DNA of 35,688 nt from a virus. Its lineage: Duplodnaviria > Heunggongvirae > Uroviricota > Caudoviricetes. Each line of letters begins with the position of its first letter. Within the stretch, counting starts at the first letter, position 1. Positions 1-6,488 of this stretch are shown piece by piece. The position numbers and the translations under genes are program-made. Below the pieces are notes generated by a model. It worked only from the letters and a program-made list of their open reading frames with translations. It was not told the DNA's origin and ran no database searches. The DNA is taken from the IMG/VR virus record IMGVR_UViG_2740892230_000015. One strand, 5' to 3'.

Positions 1-355
1 TACGCTGCTCGTTGAGTTTTGATTTTGTCTCCTCAAGCTCAACACGCAGCTTCCCTACCGTTAGCGCAATGTCCTCGTTCTCCTGGTCGCGGCGTTTGAT
101 ATATTGCTGGTTTCTTTCCCGTTCATCCAGCAGTGCCTGCACTACTTTAGGGTTGAAAGCTGCGATAAATTCTGCGTTGTTCTCTGCATTTTTCTGGCCG
201 TCAAAGCCAGGCCATTTGATAATGTCTCCGCAACGTTCATCCCCCGGCGTATGCACCGCATATGTATCAGTGCCCGGCGAAATGAATGCGACCCATTCGC
301 CCTGTGTTGCCTGTTTTGCTAACTCACGCAGTGCCTGATAGTCAATCTTGCTCAC
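1..355 (-). CDS. Ead/Ea22-like protein, partial (3' end runs off window)
   Basis: Open frame from GTG at 355 to the window edge with no stop; RBS GGAGG 6 nt upstream. N-terminus [21 protein letters not shown] and a coiled-coil tail recall Ea22-type proteins of lambdoid phages. Not in the ORF track (non-ATG start, no stop in window). Confidence 0.4.
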
Positions 356-519
356 TGGTTGCCTCCTTTACGCCACATCGCATTCAGATATTTGTTTTGA
401 TTCACTGATGGAAAAGAATTTCTCTTAAGCAATTCCTCTCTCGATGGCATTGGCTTTACGCGCTGGCGAATAATCATTTCTGCCGGAAGAATGCCGGGAT
501 TGTATGCAAGTCCTCTCAT
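352..519 (-). CDS. small hypothetical protein (55 aa)
   Basis: ATG at 519 overlaps the stop of the upstream gene (ATGA); its own stop overlaps the GTG of the next gene (GTGA). Inferred from translational coupling only. Confidence 0.3.
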
Positions 520-806
520 GATTTACTCTCCACGAACTGGTCAATAGCCATGCTAAGTGACACACCTAAAGTCTCGATATGCTGCTGAATATCCTGTAGC
601 GTCTGCGCCTGAGATAACAGGATTTCACGGTTGCATAACTCTTTAACCAGATGCTCAAACTTGCTGTAATAACCGATACGACTTAGTGTTTCTTTCCCTG
701 CATTCTCGTCTTCTTTGATAATTCCTCTTTCGCTAAGAATCAGATCGTGTTTTGTTCCGGTAATAACGTATTTTCCGAGGTCGATGTTTAGCTTCATTGT
801 TTTCAT
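516..806 (-). CDS. hypothetical protein
   Basis: ORF 516..959; preferred start is ATG at 806, preceded by GAGGAA. An alternative ATG at 824 overlaps the upstream stop. Confidence 0.45.
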
Positions 807-816
807 TGTTAATTCC

Positions 817-1113
817 TCAGTCATTACTGATAGCGCCATAGCGTGAGCGGTAATTACGCAGGCGCGGGTCGATATATTCAGGGAAGTGGGTGTATGTGGC
901 TTTGCGGAATGGTCGGATTGATGTCTGGTAAATTCGCTCGCGTTCTTCTTTCTCTGCAAGCCATATACAATGGCGAAATTCCTTTTCCTCTTTCGTTTCC
1001 TGCGGTAGCGACATTATCAGGTCGTAGTTTTTCCTGAATTTATCCAGCACCTCCGATACGGAATTGCCGGAACAGCGGCGCGGGTCATCCGCACCATACA
1101 GAGGCGCTGGCAT
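817..1113 (-). CDS. hypothetical protein (98 aa)
   Basis: ATG start with AAGGA RBS 7 nt upstream; lies directly downstream of ssb in the same operon. Confidence 0.5.
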   Translation of the reverse strand: MPAPLYGADDPRRCSGNSVSEVLDKFRKNYDLIMSLPQETKEEKEFRHCIWLAEKEERERIYQTSIRPFRKATYTHFPEYIDPRLRNYRSRYGAISND

Positions 1114-1136
1114 AATTAAATCCTTATTTTTCTAAA

Positions 1137-1520
1137 TCAGAATGGGATGGAATCGTCGTATACAGGAGTGTTCTGCTGGTTACTACTTTGCTGCTGCGGG
1201 CTGTTTCCTGAAGTTGCAAATCCAATCTTTGCATTCAGTAATTCAAGAGTGATGGATTGACCATTTTGCCCCTGATAAACATCAACCCTGATGTTTTCTC
1301 CGGTAATTTCCACAATGCCACCTTCAACAAGAACACTACGGTAGTAATCCGCTTGCGCTCCCGGCTTGGCAAATACAACGGTGCTGTAGTTTGTCCATTC
1401 TTTCTTTTTTGTCTGGCGATCGTAATACTGAACGCCAGCACGGATGTTGAATCCGATATTTTCCCCGGCCTGAAACTCTCTTGCGGGCTTGTTTAGTCTT
1501 ACAGTAATCGAATGTGCCAT
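1137..1520 (-). CDS. ssb: single-stranded DNA-binding protein (phage SSB)
   Basis: OB-fold-like N-terminus, Gln/Ser-rich linker and the acidic C-terminal tail ...YDDSIPF typical of SSB. ATG at 1520 overlaps the erf stop (TAATG). Confidence 0.8.
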   Translation of the reverse strand: MAHSITVRLNKPAREFQAGENIGFNIRAGVQYYDRQTKKKEWTNYSTVVFAKPGAQADYYRSVLVEGGIVEITGENIRVDVYQGQNGQSITLELLNAKIGFATSGNSPQQQSSNQQNTPVYDDSIPF

Positions 1521-2125
1521 TAAGCAGCAGCTCCTTCTAATTCGTCTCGTCTGATGTTGTAAACGTCCTGCGCTTTGTGCTGCTCCGGTGTGCCTTCGAG
1601 CATCTTCCACGCTTTGGCGAACGCCTGTTTAAGCTCTTCCACGGTGTTTTTCTGCAATGCTGCGTCAGTGAATGCTTTTAGAACCTGTTCAGGTGTAGGT
1701 GATGGTTTTGATTGCTTTGCTGCTGCGTTCTGCTGATGTTTATGCTCGTCGGTATCTGCATCTTTCGCATCATCAATGCCGAACAAACCATTGAGGCAAT
1801 ACTTGCGTGCATAAGAGCTTGTAGCTCCCGTAACTTGTGCAGAATCCATTCCTTTCTTGCTTTCTTCCTCTCGTGCAAGAGCGGTTGCCGTATGACTGTT
1901 TTCGCCATCGGTAATAGTTGCCGTGGCTTTCACGTAATACCGATCACCAATCAACACAACTTCATCGCTGATTGATAAAAACAGGCCATTCAGTAACGGC
2001 TTAACGCCTTCAAGAATGTCTTCGCAGCTTCTGTATTTATATTTACCGAATGAGTTGTACTGATTCTTTGGCGCGTTCAAGTTCTCCTGAATAGCTGCCA
2101 GTCTTGCGTAAAATTCTTTGCTCAT
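1520..2125 (-). CDS. erf: ERF-family single-strand annealing recombinase
   Basis: N-terminus MSKEFYARLAAIQENLNAPKNQYNSFGKYKYRSCEDILEG and motif SSYARKYCLNGLFGIDD match the Erf family. The track start at 2155 is TTG; ATG at 2125 is preferred. Confidence 0.8.
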   Translation of the reverse strand: MSKEFYARLAAIQENLNAPKNQYNSFGKYKYRSCEDILEGVKPLLNGLFLSISDEVVLIGDRYYVKATATITDGENSHTATALAREEESKKGMDSAQVTGATSSYARKYCLNGLFGIDDAKDADTDEHKHQQNAAAKQSKPSPTPEQVLKAFTDAALQKNTVEELKQAFAKAWKMLEGTPEQHKAQDVYNIRRDELEGAAA

Positions 2126-2135
2126 ATGTTTGTTC

Positions 2136-2306
2136 TCAGAATGGGCATGGCCCAAGGAAATAACGCTGATTTAATACTTCAGTCTTTGCCGCATTTAAAA
2201 ATACGCGAACACCTTCACGATCTCCCTTCTGGCGATACATTAACGCCTGCTGCGTGTACATGCGTCTCTGTAACTTGCTCTCCTTCACTGTGGTTGCAAG
2301 TGACAT
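2136..2306 (-). CDS. small hypothetical protein (56 aa)
   Basis: ATG at 2306 with a strong RBS (GAAGGAGATATTC-ATG). Overlaps the 3' part of the 2215..2385 ORF in another frame, so only one may be real. Confidence 0.25.
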   Translation of the reverse strand: MSLATTVKESKLQRRMYTQQALMYRQKGDREGVRVFLNAAKTEVLNQRYFLGPCPF

Positions 2307-2385
2307 GAATATCTCCTTCGTTACCGATTAATTCTTTCATCTGACGAATGAATTCTTCGTCTGACCAGTTATCTGTAAAACTCAT
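2215..2385 (-). CDS. small hypothetical protein (56 aa)
   Basis: ATG at 2385 overlaps the stop of the upstream gene (ATGA coupling); translation MSFTDNWSDEEFIRQMKELIGNEG... Confidence 0.3.
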   Translation of the reverse strand: MSFTDNWSDEEFIRQMKELIGNEGDIHVTCNHSEGEQVTETHVHAAGVNVSPEGRS

Positions 2386-2552
2386 GGACGGCCTTGTTGT
2401 TTCAAAATATCCCAAAGCTTTTCGAGCAAACTTTTCATTCTTGGTTGTTTAAAGTCTGCTCCGGTTAAAATATTTTTTCGTGAATGCTGTACCGATAAAA
2501 TCGGGTTGAAAGGGCGAACCGATGCCGCCCCTGCAATAGCGAACTGTTGCAT
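2382..2552 (-). CDS. small hypothetical protein (56 aa)
   Basis: ATG at 2552 with AAGGAG RBS 7 nt upstream; first gene after the intrinsic terminator at 2612-2641. Confidence 0.35.
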   Translation of the reverse strand: MQQFAIAGAASVRPFNPILSVQHSRKNILTGADFKQPRMKSLLEKLWDILKQQGRP

Positions 2553-2611
2553 AGGATGCTCCTTCTGTTTGATTGCATAACGAAAACGCCTCGAGTGAAG
2601 CGTTATTGGTA

Positions 2612-2641
2612 TGCATATAAAAAGGCCCTCACACTGGAGGG
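2612..2641 (-). terminator. rho-independent terminator (minus strand)
   Basis: On the minus strand, hairpin GCCCTCCAGTGTGAGGGC followed by a T-rich tract. Confidence 0.45.
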
Positions 2642-2746
2642 CAAAGAAGATTTCCAATAATCAGAACAAGTCGGCTCCTGTTTAGTTACGAGCGACATTG
2701 CTCCGTGTATTCACTCGTTGGAATGAATACACAGTGCTTACTCGTA

Positions 2747-2984
2747 CTAATAAAATACCCAATTTTCTGTTTCTTGGTTGTGCCCAAAGTTATATTCAAT
2801 ATCTGGTGTTGATGTATCAATATTCTTCATCCCATCAACAAGAGTTGATACAACAGCNNNNNNNNNNTAGTGCCAGTGCCACCGATGGCGTGAACGCCAT
2901 ACGAAACGCCACAAAATTTTGATGCATAGGTTCTGTTTCTACTGCAACTGCCGCATCTCGCAGTGCCTGATAGTCAATTGTCAT
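2747..2984 (-). CDS. hypothetical protein with Ea22-like N-terminus, interrupted by an assembly gap
   Basis: ATG at 2984 overlaps the upstream stop (ATGA). N-terminus MTIDYQALRDAAVAVE resembles the 1..355 protein. The N-run at 2858-2867 lies inside; the frame is open on both sides but offset by 1 if the gap is exactly 10 nt. Confidence 0.3.
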
Positions 2985-3625
2985 TCTCGCCATCCTTCAC
3001 AGTTGTAATCACGACAGCCTTCAAAATCATATGGGCTGTACTGCCAGGTTATTTTTCCGCAATGCGGACAATTCCAACGCACCTTCCCGCTTCGCGACTT
3101 CTTTCTTCTGTTCTGCTCTTTCAACCAGTCAGGCATGACCAAACCTGCGCCCTGAACCATTGTTCTGCGGTTAAAGTTATTGATATTGAACGTCCGACGC
3201 TTTGCTGCATCAGCAATGGAAAATGGCAACCAAACTATTCCTGGTTCGTTTTTGTTGGCGACGCTAAAGATGGTCGCTTTACTGAAGTCATCTGTTGGCA
3301 ATCCACCGTGTTGAAGCCAGTAAACATCGTTGCCGTTCCAGCTACCTTTTTTGTAGGCCACATACGCAGTGCAATCTGACTCAATCAGGCTTTCTGTGGG
3401 GATGTACTGGCAATCAACGTGCCACACAGCCATTGCATCCACGCTATCAGCGCAAACAGGCTGATCGATATCTCGTCCACAATTCCAGGCTTTTTGGGCT
3501 TCTTCCAGCGTGTAAACATGAGCGCGATCGATATCAGAACTGTAACCATTGCCGTTATGGCAATGGAATGAGGCGTTATTACCCACAGTTTCACGCAAGC
3601 ACATCATGTAAAAGCGGTTATTCAC
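2981..3625 (-). CDS. hypothetical phage protein (214 aa)
   Basis: GTG start at 3625 preceded by GGAGGCAACCA; Cys/His-rich. No family recognised. Confidence 0.5.
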   Translation of the reverse strand: MNNRFYMMCLRETVGNNASFHCHNGNGYSSDIDRAHVYTLEEAQKAWNCGRDIDQPVCADSVDAMAVWHVDCQYIPTESLIESDCTAYVAYKKGSWNGNDVYWLQHGGLPTDDFSKATIFSVANKNEPGIVWLPFSIADAAKRRTFNINNFNRRTMVQGAGLVMPDWLKEQNRRKKSRSGKVRWNCPHCGKITWQYSPYDFEGCRDYNCEGWRE

Positions 3626-3878
3626 TGGTTGCCTCCGCTTCCCACGTTTTCAGACTTTCACCACAGAACGGGCAAAATGAAACTCGAATAGGCGATTTAG
3701 AAAATTCACCAGACCGCAGCATGATCAGGTCTTGTGAATGAATTAATTCATGGTTATAGATTTTGTATTTCAGCAGACCTTTTCGCGTCGTGTATTCAGC
3801 GTCATGCTCCAGGGATTGTGCCAACGCCGCGCACGGTTCTATCTTGTTGCCATTAATTTGGCATTTTGACTCACTCAC
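3618..3878 (-). CDS. putative zinc-ribbon protein (about 86 aa)
   Basis: ORF 3618..3902; preferred start GTG at 3878 in the repeated context GGGGGCAACCAGTGA, overlapping the upstream stop. Contains C-x8-C ... CPFC. Confidence 0.4.
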   Translation of the reverse strand: MSESKCQINGNKIEPCAALAQSLEHDAEYTTRKGLLKYKIYNHELIHSQDLIMLRSGEFSKSPIRVSFCPFCGESLKTWEAEATSE

Positions 3879-4452
3879 TGGTTGCCCCCTGAATACGCTC
3901 AAACTCTATTACCCACACCCAAGGATTAGCGTTCCAACTATCTTCGCCATAAATTGATTTCCATAGGCTACGGAAACCTGGGTAATGCTTATCGCCAATG
4001 AGGGTCGATTCTGTTGGTGCGCCCTCAGCCCTTGCATCGCATTCGCTGATATCGTTCAACCGCTCAACGCGCACGTTGGTAATTTCCAGAAGAATGCGCG
4101 ATGCCCAGCGCGGCATGTGAATTGATGGCGTCCACTTTTCTGATACTGGTTTATTACAAACCTCGACCGGAACCCGGTGCGTTTGTTCTGTCCAGGAGTT
4201 ACGCACGCTTGCGCGATAAACCAGCGTTGCGACGTCCGTCGCTTTGCCATGTACCCGGTAGGTTTCGCGAACCCAAATACGATCGCCCGGTTGACCATAT
4301 GGACAATGCTTGGCAAGCAACTCTGCGGCCACTGCCCGTCCATAGAATTTTTCTTCAACAATCCTGCGAGTCTGTGTTTTATTCCCGCCAAGAATTGCCC
4401 GGACCATCTCATCGTTAAAAATCATGCCGCGCTCTTTCACTTCGCCTTTCAT
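3871..4452 (-). CDS. ASCH/PUA-like domain protein
   Basis: ATG at 4452 with GGGGGA RBS. Motifs FNDEMVRAILGGNKTQTRR and SIHMPRWASRI resemble the ASCH fold; a call from memory of the motif. Confidence 0.45.
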   Translation of the reverse strand: MKGEVKERGMIFNDEMVRAILGGNKTQTRRIVEEKFYGRAVAAELLAKHCPYGQPGDRIWVRETYRVHGKATDVATLVYRASVRNSWTEQTHRVPVEVCNKPVSEKWTPSIHMPRWASRILLEITNVRVERLNDISECDARAEGAPTESTLIGDKHYPGFRSLWKSIYGEDSWNANPWVWVIEFERIQGATSE

Positions 4453-4461
4453 GCATCCCCC

Positions 4462-4548
4462 TTACCCATGTGCGACGATGCCGCCAAAAGTGATAGAGAA
4501 CAGCCAGAAATAGATCGCGGCCATAATGATTTTGAATGCCGTGTTCAT
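4462..4548 (-). CDS. small hydrophobic peptide (28 aa)
   Basis: ATG at 4548 with GGAG RBS; translation MNTAFKIIMAAIYFWLFSITFGGIVAHG is a single predicted transmembrane helix. First ORF downstream of the operator-promoter at 4617-4647. Confidence 0.3.
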   Translation of the reverse strand: MNTAFKIIMAAIYFWLFSITFGGIVAHG

Positions 4549-4616
4549 ATTTTCAGCTCCTGTGATTGATTGGATACATGCCGCGCCTTGCGGCATGTTT
4601 TTATTTTCACTTTCTC

Positions 4617-4647
4617 TGTTTTAAAAATCAATATTTATTAGAGCAAT
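4617..4647 (-). promoter_or_regulatory. C1-operator-like site overlapping a sigma70-like promoter
   Basis: Minus strand reads ATTGCTCTAATAAATAT (16/17 to the P1 C1 operator). TTGCTC as -35, 17-nt spacer, TAAAAC as -10. Confidence 0.55.
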
Positions 4648-5153
4648 CATTGTTGATGGAGAAGCGCGTTTTCATACTCCCTGACCATTAACGTAAGCAC
4701 GCCGTGCCTCCTGAAAACACGCGCCACTTCAATCTTATCTTCCAGCGCGAACGCGATTTTACTTAGACCAATTTTCTTAAGGAGATCAATCTTTGCTGGG
4801 CCGTCATTTCTGTCATCGGTGGCAGGACGCATAGATAGCAAAGGCTCAGCCCCGTTTGTTACGTACTTCCGCAGCCAGGCTCGTGTTTTATCCCTTGCGA
4901 TCTCACAGCGCCCGGTTACAAACCAGACCGTGTAAACGTTAAATAACTGGCGCACCATATCAATAACTGGAGTGATGGGAGTATCGGTGTCACAGGCGAG
5001 ATTAAACTCGTTCCAGTCCTTTGTTAATGCACCTTTACCTGGTGGCGGAAGCAAATGCAGTCTGTCTTCAGTTGCCTCTGATATTGTTCCATCAATATCA
5101 ACTATGACGATATACGGACGTTCCTGGTGTGCGTGTTTATTGAAAATACTCAA
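4647..5153 (-). CDS. HAD-superfamily phosphatase (polynucleotide kinase 3'-phosphatase-like)
   Basis: N-terminal motif I VIVDIDGT; size and layout fit a HAD phosphatase. TTG start at 5153 with AGGAGG upstream. Confidence 0.55.
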   Translation of the reverse strand: MSIFNKHAHQERPYIVIVDIDGTISEATEDRLHLLPPPGKGALTKDWNEFNLACDTDTPITPVIDMVRQLFNVYTVWFVTGRCEIARDKTRAWLRKYVTNGAEPLLSMRPATDDRNDGPAKIDLLKKIGLSKIAFALEDKIEVARVFRRHGVLTLMVREYENALLHQQ

Positions 5154-5172
5154 ATGCCCTCCTCATTGGACG

Positions 5173-5204
5173 AAAAAAATGCTGGTGGGCGCACTCCACC
5201 AGCA
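5173..5204 (-). terminator. rho-independent terminator (minus strand)
   Basis: Minus strand hairpin TGCTGGTGG-AGTGCGC-CCACCAGCA followed by T7. Confidence 0.5.
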
Positions 5205-5225
5205 TTAAAAGTGACACTGTAACTG

Positions 5226-6488
5226 TCAGCGAACGTAAATAGTGCCGCCGTTCTCTTTTTCCCATGCATCGCTACGTGCATAGCAAACATCGAGAAGTCT
5301 TCTTGCCGCTGTTTCCTCTAAACCCAATTCGACAACCAACTGCTCATGACGGCGGGTAACCACATCAAACAGGGTATGCAGCCCTTTAGTTGCCAGATCA
5401 TCAATAAATTCCGGTTCGAACGGCAGCTCTGCATCTGCCAACATAACCTCTTGCGCCCACTCGACACGGCGGACCAGTTCCGGGCGGCGGCTTTCCATCT
5501 CTTTACAGATCAATTCATGGAAGAACTCTACCCAACCTTCCGGCTGGAACTCGCGGAAAATGGCCAGCGGCTGGAAGTTTGGCATCAACCATTCGTTGAT
5601 TCGGATATCAATGGCATAGCCCATGTCGCAGCAGAACTGATAAGCAAAGTCCAGCTTAGAAACGATATAAGGACGCTCGTTATTGAACTCTTTAGGCGAT
5701 GAGATCCCATAAGCCAGGAGGCGCGGGAAGAAGGAGATTTGCCCTAACGTCGGATGAAGTTTGCTTGCAGGGAAACGGCGCTCAGTAATGCCATACATTT
5801 CCTTCTTGAGCGTCGCAAATTTGGCATTCTCATTAACCAGCGCGGTAACCTCTGCTTTTTTATTAGCAAATGCCACGCGCGCTTCGCTTGCATCTTTAAT
5901 AGTTTTTTTGAGCTGTTGGTTAAGGTCGGCGACCTGCTTACGCAGTTCCTGTCGCTCGCTTTTAGCTTTGTTATAGCGTTTCTCAAGGTTAAAAGGATCA
6001 AGTTTCATGATCTCTTTATATTGAGATTTTAGCGTTGAAATCTGTGAGTTCCGCAGTTCAACCATCGCGGTCATTTCATTGAGTTTTGTTTCCAGCTCAA
6101 TGCTTATACGTTCGGCATTATCAGCACGCTGGTTGGCGTCATGCGTCGCATCGTCGATCGCGTCCTGTTGCTGGCGTTTCAAATGTTCAATTTGCAGCTG
6201 AAGCTCTTCAATTTCTTTACCCTTCAGACCGAGATCCAACTGCATATTTTCAGCTGCATCTACCAGGGAGTTATGGCTATCAGCTTCTGCGTTATAAACA
6301 TCAATAAGCTGTGCGTGAAGCATCTCCGCTGACTGAACCGCATTATCAAAAAAACGTGCTGTGAGGTCATCACAACTAACGCGGCGTTGCGCGGCCCGGA
6401 TGTTCTGGATAATGGCCGGGATACCGGCATTCAGGACATCAGGGATAGATACATTTTCGATTGATTGGTTTTGTGCTGAAGTGCTCAT
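5226..6488 (-). CDS. coiled-coil protein of unknown function (420 aa)
   Basis: Long ATG-initiated ORF; the central about 200 aa is heptad-rich and charged (EIEELQLQIEHLKRQQQ...). No enzymatic motif recognised. Confidence 0.6.
   Translation of the reverse strand: MSTSAQNQSIENVSIPDVLNAGIPAIIQNIRAAQRRVSCDDLTARFFDNAVQSAEMLHAQLIDVYNAEADSHNSLVDAAENMQLDLGLKGKEIEELQLQIEHLKRQQQDAIDDATHDANQRADNAERISIELETKLNEMTAMVELRNSQISTLKSQYKEIMKLDPFNLEKRYNKAKSERQELRKQVADLNQQLKKTIKDASEARVAFANKKAEVTALVNENAKFATLKKEMYGITERRFPASKLHPTLGQISFFPRLLAYGISSPKEFNNERPYIVSKLDFAYQFCCDMGYAIDIRINEWLMPNFQPLAIFREFQPEGWVEFFHELICKEMESRRPELVRRVEWAQEVMLADAELPFEPEFIDDLATKGLHTLFDVVTRRHEQLVVELGLEETAARRLLDVCYARSDAWEKENGGTIYVR

Follow-up and report, generated by a model that had tools for sequence, protein, structure and literature searches.

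A stop/start junction shared by accessory genes of lambdoid and P1-like phages, in a scaffold that probably joins two early operons

Introduction

Here we analysed a 35,688-nucleotide (nt) stretch of tailed-phage DNA, IMG/VR record IMGVR_UViG_2740892230_000015, referred to below as the window. Its left end carries a series of small minus-strand genes, among them erf and a gene for an SSB-like protein, and three copies of a short motif that lie exactly where one gene stops and the next begins. A reading of the sequence alone, hereafter the original prediction, had taken these genes for one translationally coupled operon of at least twelve members, starting from an operator-promoter at 4617-4647, with the motif as a conserved junction for modular gene gain. 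Two questions follow: whether this is one operon, and what the repeated junction is. We consider it probable that the interval is a scaffold of two known and separately regulated early accessory operons, the hea operon of a P7-type phage-plasmid and the distal pL operon of a lambdoid prophage, and that the motif is a widespread junction element used for cassette exchange.

Two replicons meet at an assembly gap

The only run of N in the window separates the genes downstream of the operator from those around erf.

2858..2867, no strand: scaffold gap of 10 N, with P1/P7-type sequence to the right and lambdoid prophage sequence to the left

The left flank (1-2857) has 100% identity with a chromosomal lambdoid prophage of E. 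coli 55989, the right flank (2868-5400) is 99.6% identical to P7 over 2533 nt, and 5400-30000 is 98.8% identical to P1. The gap truncates one gene on each side, and the two are out of frame across the 10 nt. On the right, a P7-type Ead/Ea22 gene (upf88.3) is interrupted after codon 42; on the left, only the last 36 codons and the stop remain of a lambdoid open reading frame (ORF) of 156 amino acids. The P1-like piece stops exactly at the start of a stretch of about 100 nt that it has in common with the other Ea22 gene of the window (30-137), and short-read contigs tend to break at such shared repeat stretches. No record containing at least 80% of the 5.4-kb interval was found among 50,697 phages, 5,426 complete E. 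coli genomes and 72,556 plasmids, and a pattern for the adjacency across the gap, allowing 0-30 nt, had no match in IMG/VR or the GTDB representative genomes. Every gene in the interval is 99-100% identical to deposited phages. Because the flanks match different replicons, both edge genes are truncated and the adjacency was found in no collection searched, we read the join as a scaffolding artefact, most likely formed at the Ea22-type repeats common to both elements. About 32.8 kb of P1/P7-like phage-plasmid lies to the right of the gap, and the GC content is 0.448 to its left and 0.477-0.484 to its right.

The original prediction would instead make the interval a contiguous coupled operon of at least twelve genes in a novel P1-lambdoid hybrid, which had gained its Erf/SSB/Abc2 module through Ea22 recombination. 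Both halves do lie on one strand, a recombinant is mechanistically possible given that Ea22-type repeats and the junction motif occur in both halves, and cassettes do pass between P1-like and lambdoid elements. However, we think a real hybrid very unlikely. Its join would consist of 10 N with a truncated, out-of-frame gene on each side, its left flank would be identical to a chromosomal prophage, and its adjacency is missing from the phages, E. coli genomes, plasmids, IMG/VR and GTDB representatives searched. Moreover, terminator-like hairpins upstream of cIII, in the position of tL2, would stop a transcript not modified by N, and the window contains no pL, N or nutL. A single operon from the operator through erf and the SSB-like gene is therefore given up here. 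On the preferred reading, in which the join is an artefact, any annotation or operon model spanning 2858-2867 would be wrong and the apparent Erf/SSB hybrid operon under a P1 operator would be a product of scaffolding, so that the main value of the window would be as a warning against trusting features across the gap.

A 15-nt element at three gene junctions

The motif GG(A/G)GGCAACCAGTGA is present in three copies, all on the minus strand and each at a junction between a stop codon and a GTG start; in 100 dinucleotide-preserving shuffles the count was 0.

3875..3889, minus strand: junction motif, copy 1, GGGGGCAACCAGTGA; start codon GTG 3878-3876 and stop codon of the upstream gene 3873-3871, overlap GTGAGTGA
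3622..3636, minus strand: junction motif, copy 2, GGAGGCAACCAGTGA; start codon GTG 3625-3623 and stop codon of the upstream gene 3620-3618, overlap GTGAATAA
352..366, minus strand: junction motif copy 3, GGAGGCAACCAGTGA; GTGA stop/start overlap

In each copy a GGAGG or GGGGG is followed, after a 6-nt spacer, by a GTG, which overlaps the upstream stop or just precedes it. These GTG starts are the ones annotated in P7 and RefSeq, in agreement with the proposal that each junction supplies a ribosome-binding site and a GTG start. The upstream gene ends either at the TGA of the motif (tail KGGNQ, copy at 352) or 5 nt beyond it (tail ATSE, with GTGAGTGA or GTGAATAA), and these two stop positions mean that upstream genes read the same 15 nt in two frames.

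Overlapping stop and start codons had been described throughout the series. They are present at 7 of about 13 junctions (GTGA, GTGAGTGA, GTGAATAA, ATGA three times and TAATG) and not at the rest, which have spacers of 9-23 nt or, in one case, a non-coding stretch of 195 nt. The seven overlapping junctions have the layout expected of termination-reinitiation pairs, with overlapping or abutting codons and a putative Shine-Dalgarno sequence within the upstream gene. The IDYQALR(E/D) block noticed near the N-termini of two ORFs also holds up: both ORFs are Ead/Ea22-like (PF13935), and they have in common an identical block of 20 nt at 327-346 and 2959-2978.

The junction recurs in lambdoid and P1-like phages

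An exact scan of IMG/VR for GGAGGCAACCAGTGA found at least 120 loci, and nearly all listed matches are stop/GTG-start junctions on lambdoid or P1-like contigs. The 112 junctions among the matches listed that were used for clustering join 28 upstream to 31 downstream protein classes in 74 combinations, with 26 complete 2x2 squares in which both upstream genes are seen with both downstream genes. Upstream ORFs end in the motif in two frames, with tails KGGNQ and EATSE(QD), and at least 24 of the 112 are genuine second-frame junctions (Upf86.8, Upf87.4 and proteins ending in EATSEQD). At least two same-strand copies occur on 74 locus strands, 241-2435 nt apart, and thus flank one or a few genes.

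In one common junction class, for example at IMG/VR loci L013, L018, L019, L026 and L042, the motif is preceded at a distance of about 25 nt by 7-8 consecutive T (GGAGTCTTTTTTTTCGTGCATCGCAGCGCAGATCCGCAAAGGAGG...), at which the long open frame switches; the length of this run varies between contigs, which could reflect sequencing noise, pseudogenes or slippage. A longest-ORF rule misframed this class, about 14 junctions, and its assignment was dropped; the true tail is AAQIRKGGNQ, in the other frame.

For junctions selected by the motif, a profile of information content is circular at the motif's own positions; it was replaced by homologue sets anchored on proteins, not chosen by the motif, together with a pairwise analysis of where similarity collapses. 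Among homologues of Upf87.6, 65 of 67 have GGAGGCANCCA before the GTG, behind varied upstream sequence (24 distinct 40-mers). DUF2737 homologues end in GGAGGCANNCAGTGA in 75 of 77 cases, followed by at least seven unrelated gene families; the 300 nt upstream form 4 sequence clusters, as against 21 in the 300 nt after the motif. Where two junctions share one side only, the collapse of similarity falls at +15 to +17 for 73% of 3,995 pairs and, on the other edge, at -1 to -7 for 79% of 2,170 pairs. A second and smaller step at +42 to +46 marks the end of the IDYQALRE block. Upf87.6 homologues with at least 97% identity occur on both lambdoid contigs of about 40 kb and P1-like contigs of about 95 kb, and a 67-nt junction consensus matches 389 phage records, 254 of them over at least 80% of its length.

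In these relatives the motif lies at gene boundaries and joins many upstream to many downstream genes, which agrees with the proposed gene gain at a conserved junction, an idea that is not new. At the level of sequence, this combinatorial pattern shows that genes have been exchanged at the junction; the recombination behind it can be put forward only conditionally. The upstream proteins often carry an extended tail, AxQLRKGGNQ, and the downstream ones the IDYQALRE block, so that the shared homology is often 30-60 nt. Otherwise different coiled-coil upstream proteins, including Ea22-like and HK97 gp37/hkaH-like ones, have a common internal block, TPATDAFLAEVRAQGV, and a tail (F/I)A(A/E/D)(Q/E)L/IRKGGNQ, and cassettes thus often have conserved ends on both sides.

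What keeps these 15 nt together? They might be a translation signal and nothing else, kept as Shine-Dalgarno sequence, spacer, GTG and stop, with the joints made by illegitimate recombination and selection (Hendrix-type) and the motif travelling with its gene instead of serving as a crossover site. The protein-anchored sets fit this in that GGAGG and GTGA are invariant and motif positions 7-8 vary (A, T, G, C), and conserved sequences are generally held to be absent at most mosaic boundaries (PMC3029335). We nevertheless find it unlikely that translation accounts for the element by itself. Near-invariance across many upstream and downstream partners and two upstream frames extends to spacer bases C5, A6, C9 and A10, for which no Shine-Dalgarno role is known. 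Similarity ends at both edges of the 15 nt, and a motif that simply travelled with a gene would need to be carried by the upstream 3' end and the downstream 5' end simultaneously. Several same-strand copies per genome also flank single cassettes. Because spacer bases without a known Shine-Dalgarno role are kept and the edges of similarity coincide with the element, we infer that it acts as a homology for exchange.

Relation to boundary sequence bsq3

The start of the Ead/Ea22-like gene behind motif copy 3 contains a block that is already annotated in another phage.

324..354, minus strand: 31-nt block coding for IDYQALRE, identical at 31/31 positions to the Sf6 misc_feature 'bsq3; boundary sequence'

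In Sf6 (GenBank AF547987) bsq3 is annotated at the start of the Ea22-like gene 21. The 15-nt core overlaps this feature by its TGA only, and Sf6 is without the GGAGGCAACCA part. Phage HK620 has GGAGGCAGCCAGTGA at its hkaH to hkaG junction. HK620 is reportedly the phage in which boundary sequences were defined, and Clark and colleagues are said to have reported seven of them in 2001. The block in the window is thus conserved at an early-left gene boundary, is identical to an annotated bsq3 and has unrelated flanks in different genomes. The junction element appears to be the 5' flank and core of bsq3, a class published in 2001, so that it would already be known in kind.

Boundary sequences as foci of recombination in lambdoid phages go back to Clark et al. 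2001 and, earlier, to Susskind and Botstein, as cited in PMC3029335. Like the element described here, bsq3 is a short conserved block that stands at the start of an early-left Ead/Ea22-like gene, and it has been put forward as a focus of the recombination that reassorts modules (Clark, Inwood, Cloutier & Dhillon 2001, J Mol Biol 311:657). The 15-nt core differs in that it also precedes non-Ea22 genes, namely Upf87.4, Upf87.6 and at least four other families, and is found in P1-like phage-plasmids too. These two points, the joining of non-Ea22-like genes and the link between lambdoid and P1-like phages, go beyond what could be found stated; the literal motif was not found in the searchable literature, where only unrelated primers matched. 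The 'linker' homologies of Susskind and Botstein and the relaxed recombination described by De Paepe et al. 2014 (PMC3945230) are likewise short homologies between swappable modules that phage recombinases use. The substrates of that work are longer than the homology of about 15-35 nt considered here, and the present junction is known from sequence alone.

For most mosaic joints of phages the linker or boundary-sequence idea is usually held not to work (PMC3029335), and this junction would be an unusually clean case of it. A 15-nt block that joins dozens of unrelated gene pairs in two frames, in lambdoid and P1-like phages, makes the idea directly testable by crosses.

How the junction may work

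The three copies in the window would be copies of one junction element widespread among enterobacterial temperate phages. As read from its sequence, the element would supply a GTG start and, set off from it by a 6-nt spacer, a strong Shine-Dalgarno sequence, which in most copies is AAGGAGG. An upstream gene in either of the two frames not fused to the downstream one would be halted at a distance of 0-11 nt from this GTG. One frame would stop at the TGA of the motif; the other would stop at GAGTGA, GAATAA or GATTGA/AATTAA within the first Ea22 codons. Such a layout would suit coupling by termination and reinitiation. The same 15-35 nt between many cassettes could then offer a short homology at which Rad52-like annealing proteins (Erf, Red-beta) or RecA swap, delete or duplicate cassettes between co-resident phages, including swaps between a lambdoid prophage and a P1-like plasmid. 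The Erf gene of the window (1520-2125) lies in its lambdoid half, and Erf-type and other Rad52-like recombinases surpass RecA on short or diverged homologies (PMC3945230).

Several points weigh against the reading as a whole. An identity of 15 nt is short for homologous recombination, and no crossover at the motif has been seen directly. The IMG/VR sample of exact matches was ascertained on the motif itself, and both the 74 class combinations and the collapse counts come from phylogenetically non-independent pairs. The tolerance at positions 7-8 is explained equally well by selection on the Shine-Dalgarno sequence and start alone and by homogenisation through recombination. The misjoin, too, is deduced from sequence, and a true hybrid by recombination between Ea22 repeats is conceivable.

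The resemblance to integron cassette arrays extends to promoterless same-strand cassettes with a short conserved element between them, one upstream promoter and combinatorial content. The junction differs in having neither an integrase nor a structured attC-type site and in being a translation-initiation and stop signal, with exchange presumably through homologous recombination, general or mediated by annealing proteins, and it is not a member of that family. Neither P7 nor the 55989 prophage, HK620 or Sf6 has an integrase annotated beside its junctions, no formal search for attC structure having been made. Could the motif still be recognised by an enzyme devoted to it, either a site-specific recombinase or a homing/HNH endonuclease, that mobilises cassettes in an attC-like manner? 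Its sharp bounds and the repeated same-strand copies around cassettes would be compatible with this, and an HNH endonuclease is among the genes listed for one related prophage region. We regard it as extremely improbable: no recombinase or nuclease gene lies consistently beside the junctions of the window, P7, the 55989 prophage, HK620 or Sf6, and the motif is always on the coding strand and at a stop/start junction, as a translation signal would be. Nor was an inverted repeat seen on reading the junction sequences by eye, with no repeat or fold tool applied.

Returning to exchange through the shared homology, a stronger version would make the core GGAGGCA(N)CCAGTGA more than the edge of bsq3: a frame-tolerant universal adaptor by which any cassette could follow any other, and the actual Erf/Red-beta hotspot, swapping cassettes across unrelated families of temperate phages as an integrase-free, integron-like system. 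We put this forward tentatively and hold it to be rather unlikely. If true, the families linked by the adaptor would be lambdoid siphoviruses and podoviruses and P1-like myovirus plasmids.

The P7-type hea operon

A P1-like phage-plasmid contributes the segment 2868-4647, its hea operon of the P7 type, which C1 represses at 4631-4647.

4631..4647, minus strand: P1-type C1 repressor operator, ATTGCTCTAATAAATAT; 16/17 bases of the consensus; equivalent of P7 Op(hea); heads the P7-type accessory operon
4462..4548, minus strand: small hydrophobic ORF of 28 amino acids, MNTAFKIIMAAIYFWLFSITFGGIVAHG; first ORF past the operator; no Pfam or PHROG match
3871..4452, minus strand: Upf86.8-like protein, 193 amino acids, C-terminus IQGATSE; P7 upf86.8; phrog_874, E=5e-87
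3618..3878, minus strand: Upf87.4-like protein, 86 amino acids, GTG start, C-terminus EAEATSE; P7 upf87.4 (equal length); phrog_4030, E=5e-44
2981..3625, minus strand: Upf87.6-like protein, 214 amino acids, GTG start; P7 upf87.6; phrog_2457, E=3e-119
2868..2993, minus strand: 5' fragment, 42 codons, of a P7 Upf88.3-type Ead/Ea22-like gene, truncated by the gap; IDYQALRD block; exact 20-nt bsq3 core at 2959-2978

The operator proposed at 4617-4647 is thus a C1 site. The C1 consensus, ATTGCTCTAATAAATTT, is 17 base pairs (bp) long and asymmetric, and 4631-4647 matches it with one mismatch. The window contains five matches to the C1 operator, all inside the P1-like part, and the homologous site in P7 is annotated as a protein_bind feature, Op(hea). 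The operator overlaps the stop codon of pap. A simple scan for the sigma-70 consensus called no promoter at this operator; by eye, TTGCTC and TAAAAC separated by 17 nt form a weak promoter-like match. Just upstream of the operator, pap (4647-5153, minus strand) has a match to a PNKP-type HAD phosphatase domain (PF25109, E=5e-12). Between the operator and the first ORF, at 4576-4598, there is a perfect GC-rich hairpin of 10 bp; it has a terminator score for the plus strand only, where no transcription is apparent, and on the minus strand it belongs to the operon leader.

The predicted gene order is a small membrane ORF, the Upf86.8-, Upf87.4- and Upf87.6-like genes and then the Ead/Ea22-like gene. 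This is collinear with upf86.8-upf88.3 of P7, and the boundaries of the coding sequences agree. The resemblance to the P7 hea operon (NC_050152; upf86.8-upf87.4-upf87.6-upf88.3) covers the 99.6% nucleotide identity over 2868-5400, the gene order, the GTG starts and the operator. The copy in the window differs in being truncated within upf88.3, and its 28-amino-acid ORF at 4462-4548 is unannotated in P7; in the matching region of phage SJ46 a 'membrane protein' is listed. P7 Upf88.3, the full-length homologue of 2868-2993, matches PF13935 (Ead_Ea22) with 63 bits (cut-off 27), and the stop codon of the Upf87.6-like gene overlaps, as ATGA, with the second ATG in frame in the fragment (2984-2982).

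RefSeq names homologues of the Upf86.8-like protein 'ASCH domain-containing'; our own searches with this protein found no Pfam or PDB sequence match. The Upf87.6-like protein had no match in Pfam, NCBIfam, PADLOC or PDB. An assignment of it to DUF2528, taken from a RefSeq feature list, was dropped: Pfam assigns no family, and DUF2528 is lambda Ea10. The label 'putative tyrosine phosphatase' that the P7 record gives Upf87.6 is unsupported by any profile search made here. The Upf87.4-like (CPFCGESL) and Upf87.6-like (CPHCGK...CRDYNCEGW) proteins, encoded within 2981-3878 on the minus strand, have zinc-ribbon-like Cys pairs near their C-termini.

The locus after pap is variable among P1-like plasmids, and P1 itself has pmgT-upfO there. 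In some of these plasmids, such as the Escherichia albertii plasmid pEA18_2 (locus L283, 1159-2402), two tandem Ead/Ea22-like genes follow a Upf87.6-like gene and are joined by the same junction, which matches window 323-372 at 98%. The tandem of pEA18_2 was considered as the sole explanation of the scaffolder's join and set aside, its second copy being just 94% identical to window 2-142.

The lambdoid pL-type operon

The segment 1-2857 is the distal part of the pL operon of a lambdoid prophage.

2747..2857, minus strand: 3' fragment, last 36 codons and stop, of a 156-amino-acid lambdoid ORF (WP_000167595.1 in the E. coli 55989 prophage), truncated by the gap
2585..2642, minus strand: two terminator-like hairpins (2642-2625 and 2604-2585) inside the 195-nt non-coding stretch upstream of cIII
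2382..2552, minus strand: cIII-like protein, 56 amino acids; phrog_550 'CIII', E=1e-22
2136..2385, minus strand: two overlapping small ORFs in different frames (2215-2385 and 2136-2306), between cIII and erf
1520..2125, minus strand: Erf single-strand annealing recombinase, 201 amino acids; PF04404, E=2e-44
1137..1520, minus strand: SSB-like protein, 127 amino acids, C-terminal DDSIPF; phrog_44, E=4e-27; TAATG overlap with the erf stop
817..1113, minus strand: Abc2 anti-RecBCD protein, 98 amino acids; PF11043, E=4e-63
516..797, minus strand: DUF5405 protein, 93 amino acids; PF17399, E=1e-5
352..519, minus strand: DUF2737 protein, 55 amino acids, C-terminus WRKGGNQ; PF10930, E=9e-32; last conserved gene before the hypervariable ea region
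1..355, minus strand: 5' part, 118 codons, of an Ead/Ea22-like gene running off the window; PF13935, E=1e-37

The predicted lambdoid order is cIII, two small ORFs in the kil/arf position, Erf, the SSB-like gene, Abc2, DUF5405, DUF2737 and the Ead/Ea22-like gene. The profile matches confirm the Erf and SSB calls of the original prediction, the latter as SSB-like. In its native lambdoid setting such a half is transcribed from pL with N antitermination. The window has no pL/OL operators, no N and no nutL; its lambdoid piece breaks off at 2857 within a gene, and in E. coli 55989 the repressor and its neighbours lie further upstream of the matching region. The two hairpins at 2585-2642 occupy the tL2 position of lambdoid pL operons, and HK620 annotates tL2A and tL2B upstream of cIII.

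The two ORFs between cIII and erf encode 56 amino acids each, overlap by 92 nt and match phrog_2123 (E=4e-40) and phrog_1723 (E=5e-34), both labelled 'recombinase'; RefSeq annotates just 2136-2306. This is the position that kil and arf have in P22. The DUF5405 protein also matches phrog_154, labelled "replication initiation protein". Window 2-355 scores 130 bits against PF13935 (Ead_Ea22; gathering cut-off 27). In lambda, ea22 and its neighbours are non-essential (PMC10695390), and mosaicism has been described for Ea22 proteins (PMC10834534).

Among pL modules of the HK97/P22 type (55989 prophage, HK97, HK446, Sf6), the left half has 100% identity to that of the 55989 prophage and 94-98% identity to HK97-group phages over the common parts (39-42% of the 5.4-kb query). 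It has the same order as Sf6 (erf, ssb, abc2, ..., Ea22). The window differs from these modules in having the distal part only: cut short by the gap, the piece lacks pL, N, nutL and the 5' two-thirds of the 156-amino-acid ORF.

Functions of the small proteins

The Upf86.8-like, Upf87.4-like and Upf87.6-like proteins and the DUF5405 and DUF2737 proteins belong to PHROGs or Pfam DUFs without assigned function. Cassette proteins of this kind had no matches in NCBIfam or PADLOC, and a PDB sequence search with the Upf86.8-like and Upf87.6-like proteins likewise gave none. Anti-defence roles for the small proteins, which the original prediction proposed alongside host takeover, may be a reasonable guess, and the cassettes between motif copies are accessory cargo worth screening for counter-defence functions. 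The small proteins with known functions are Abc2 (anti-RecBCD) and cIII.

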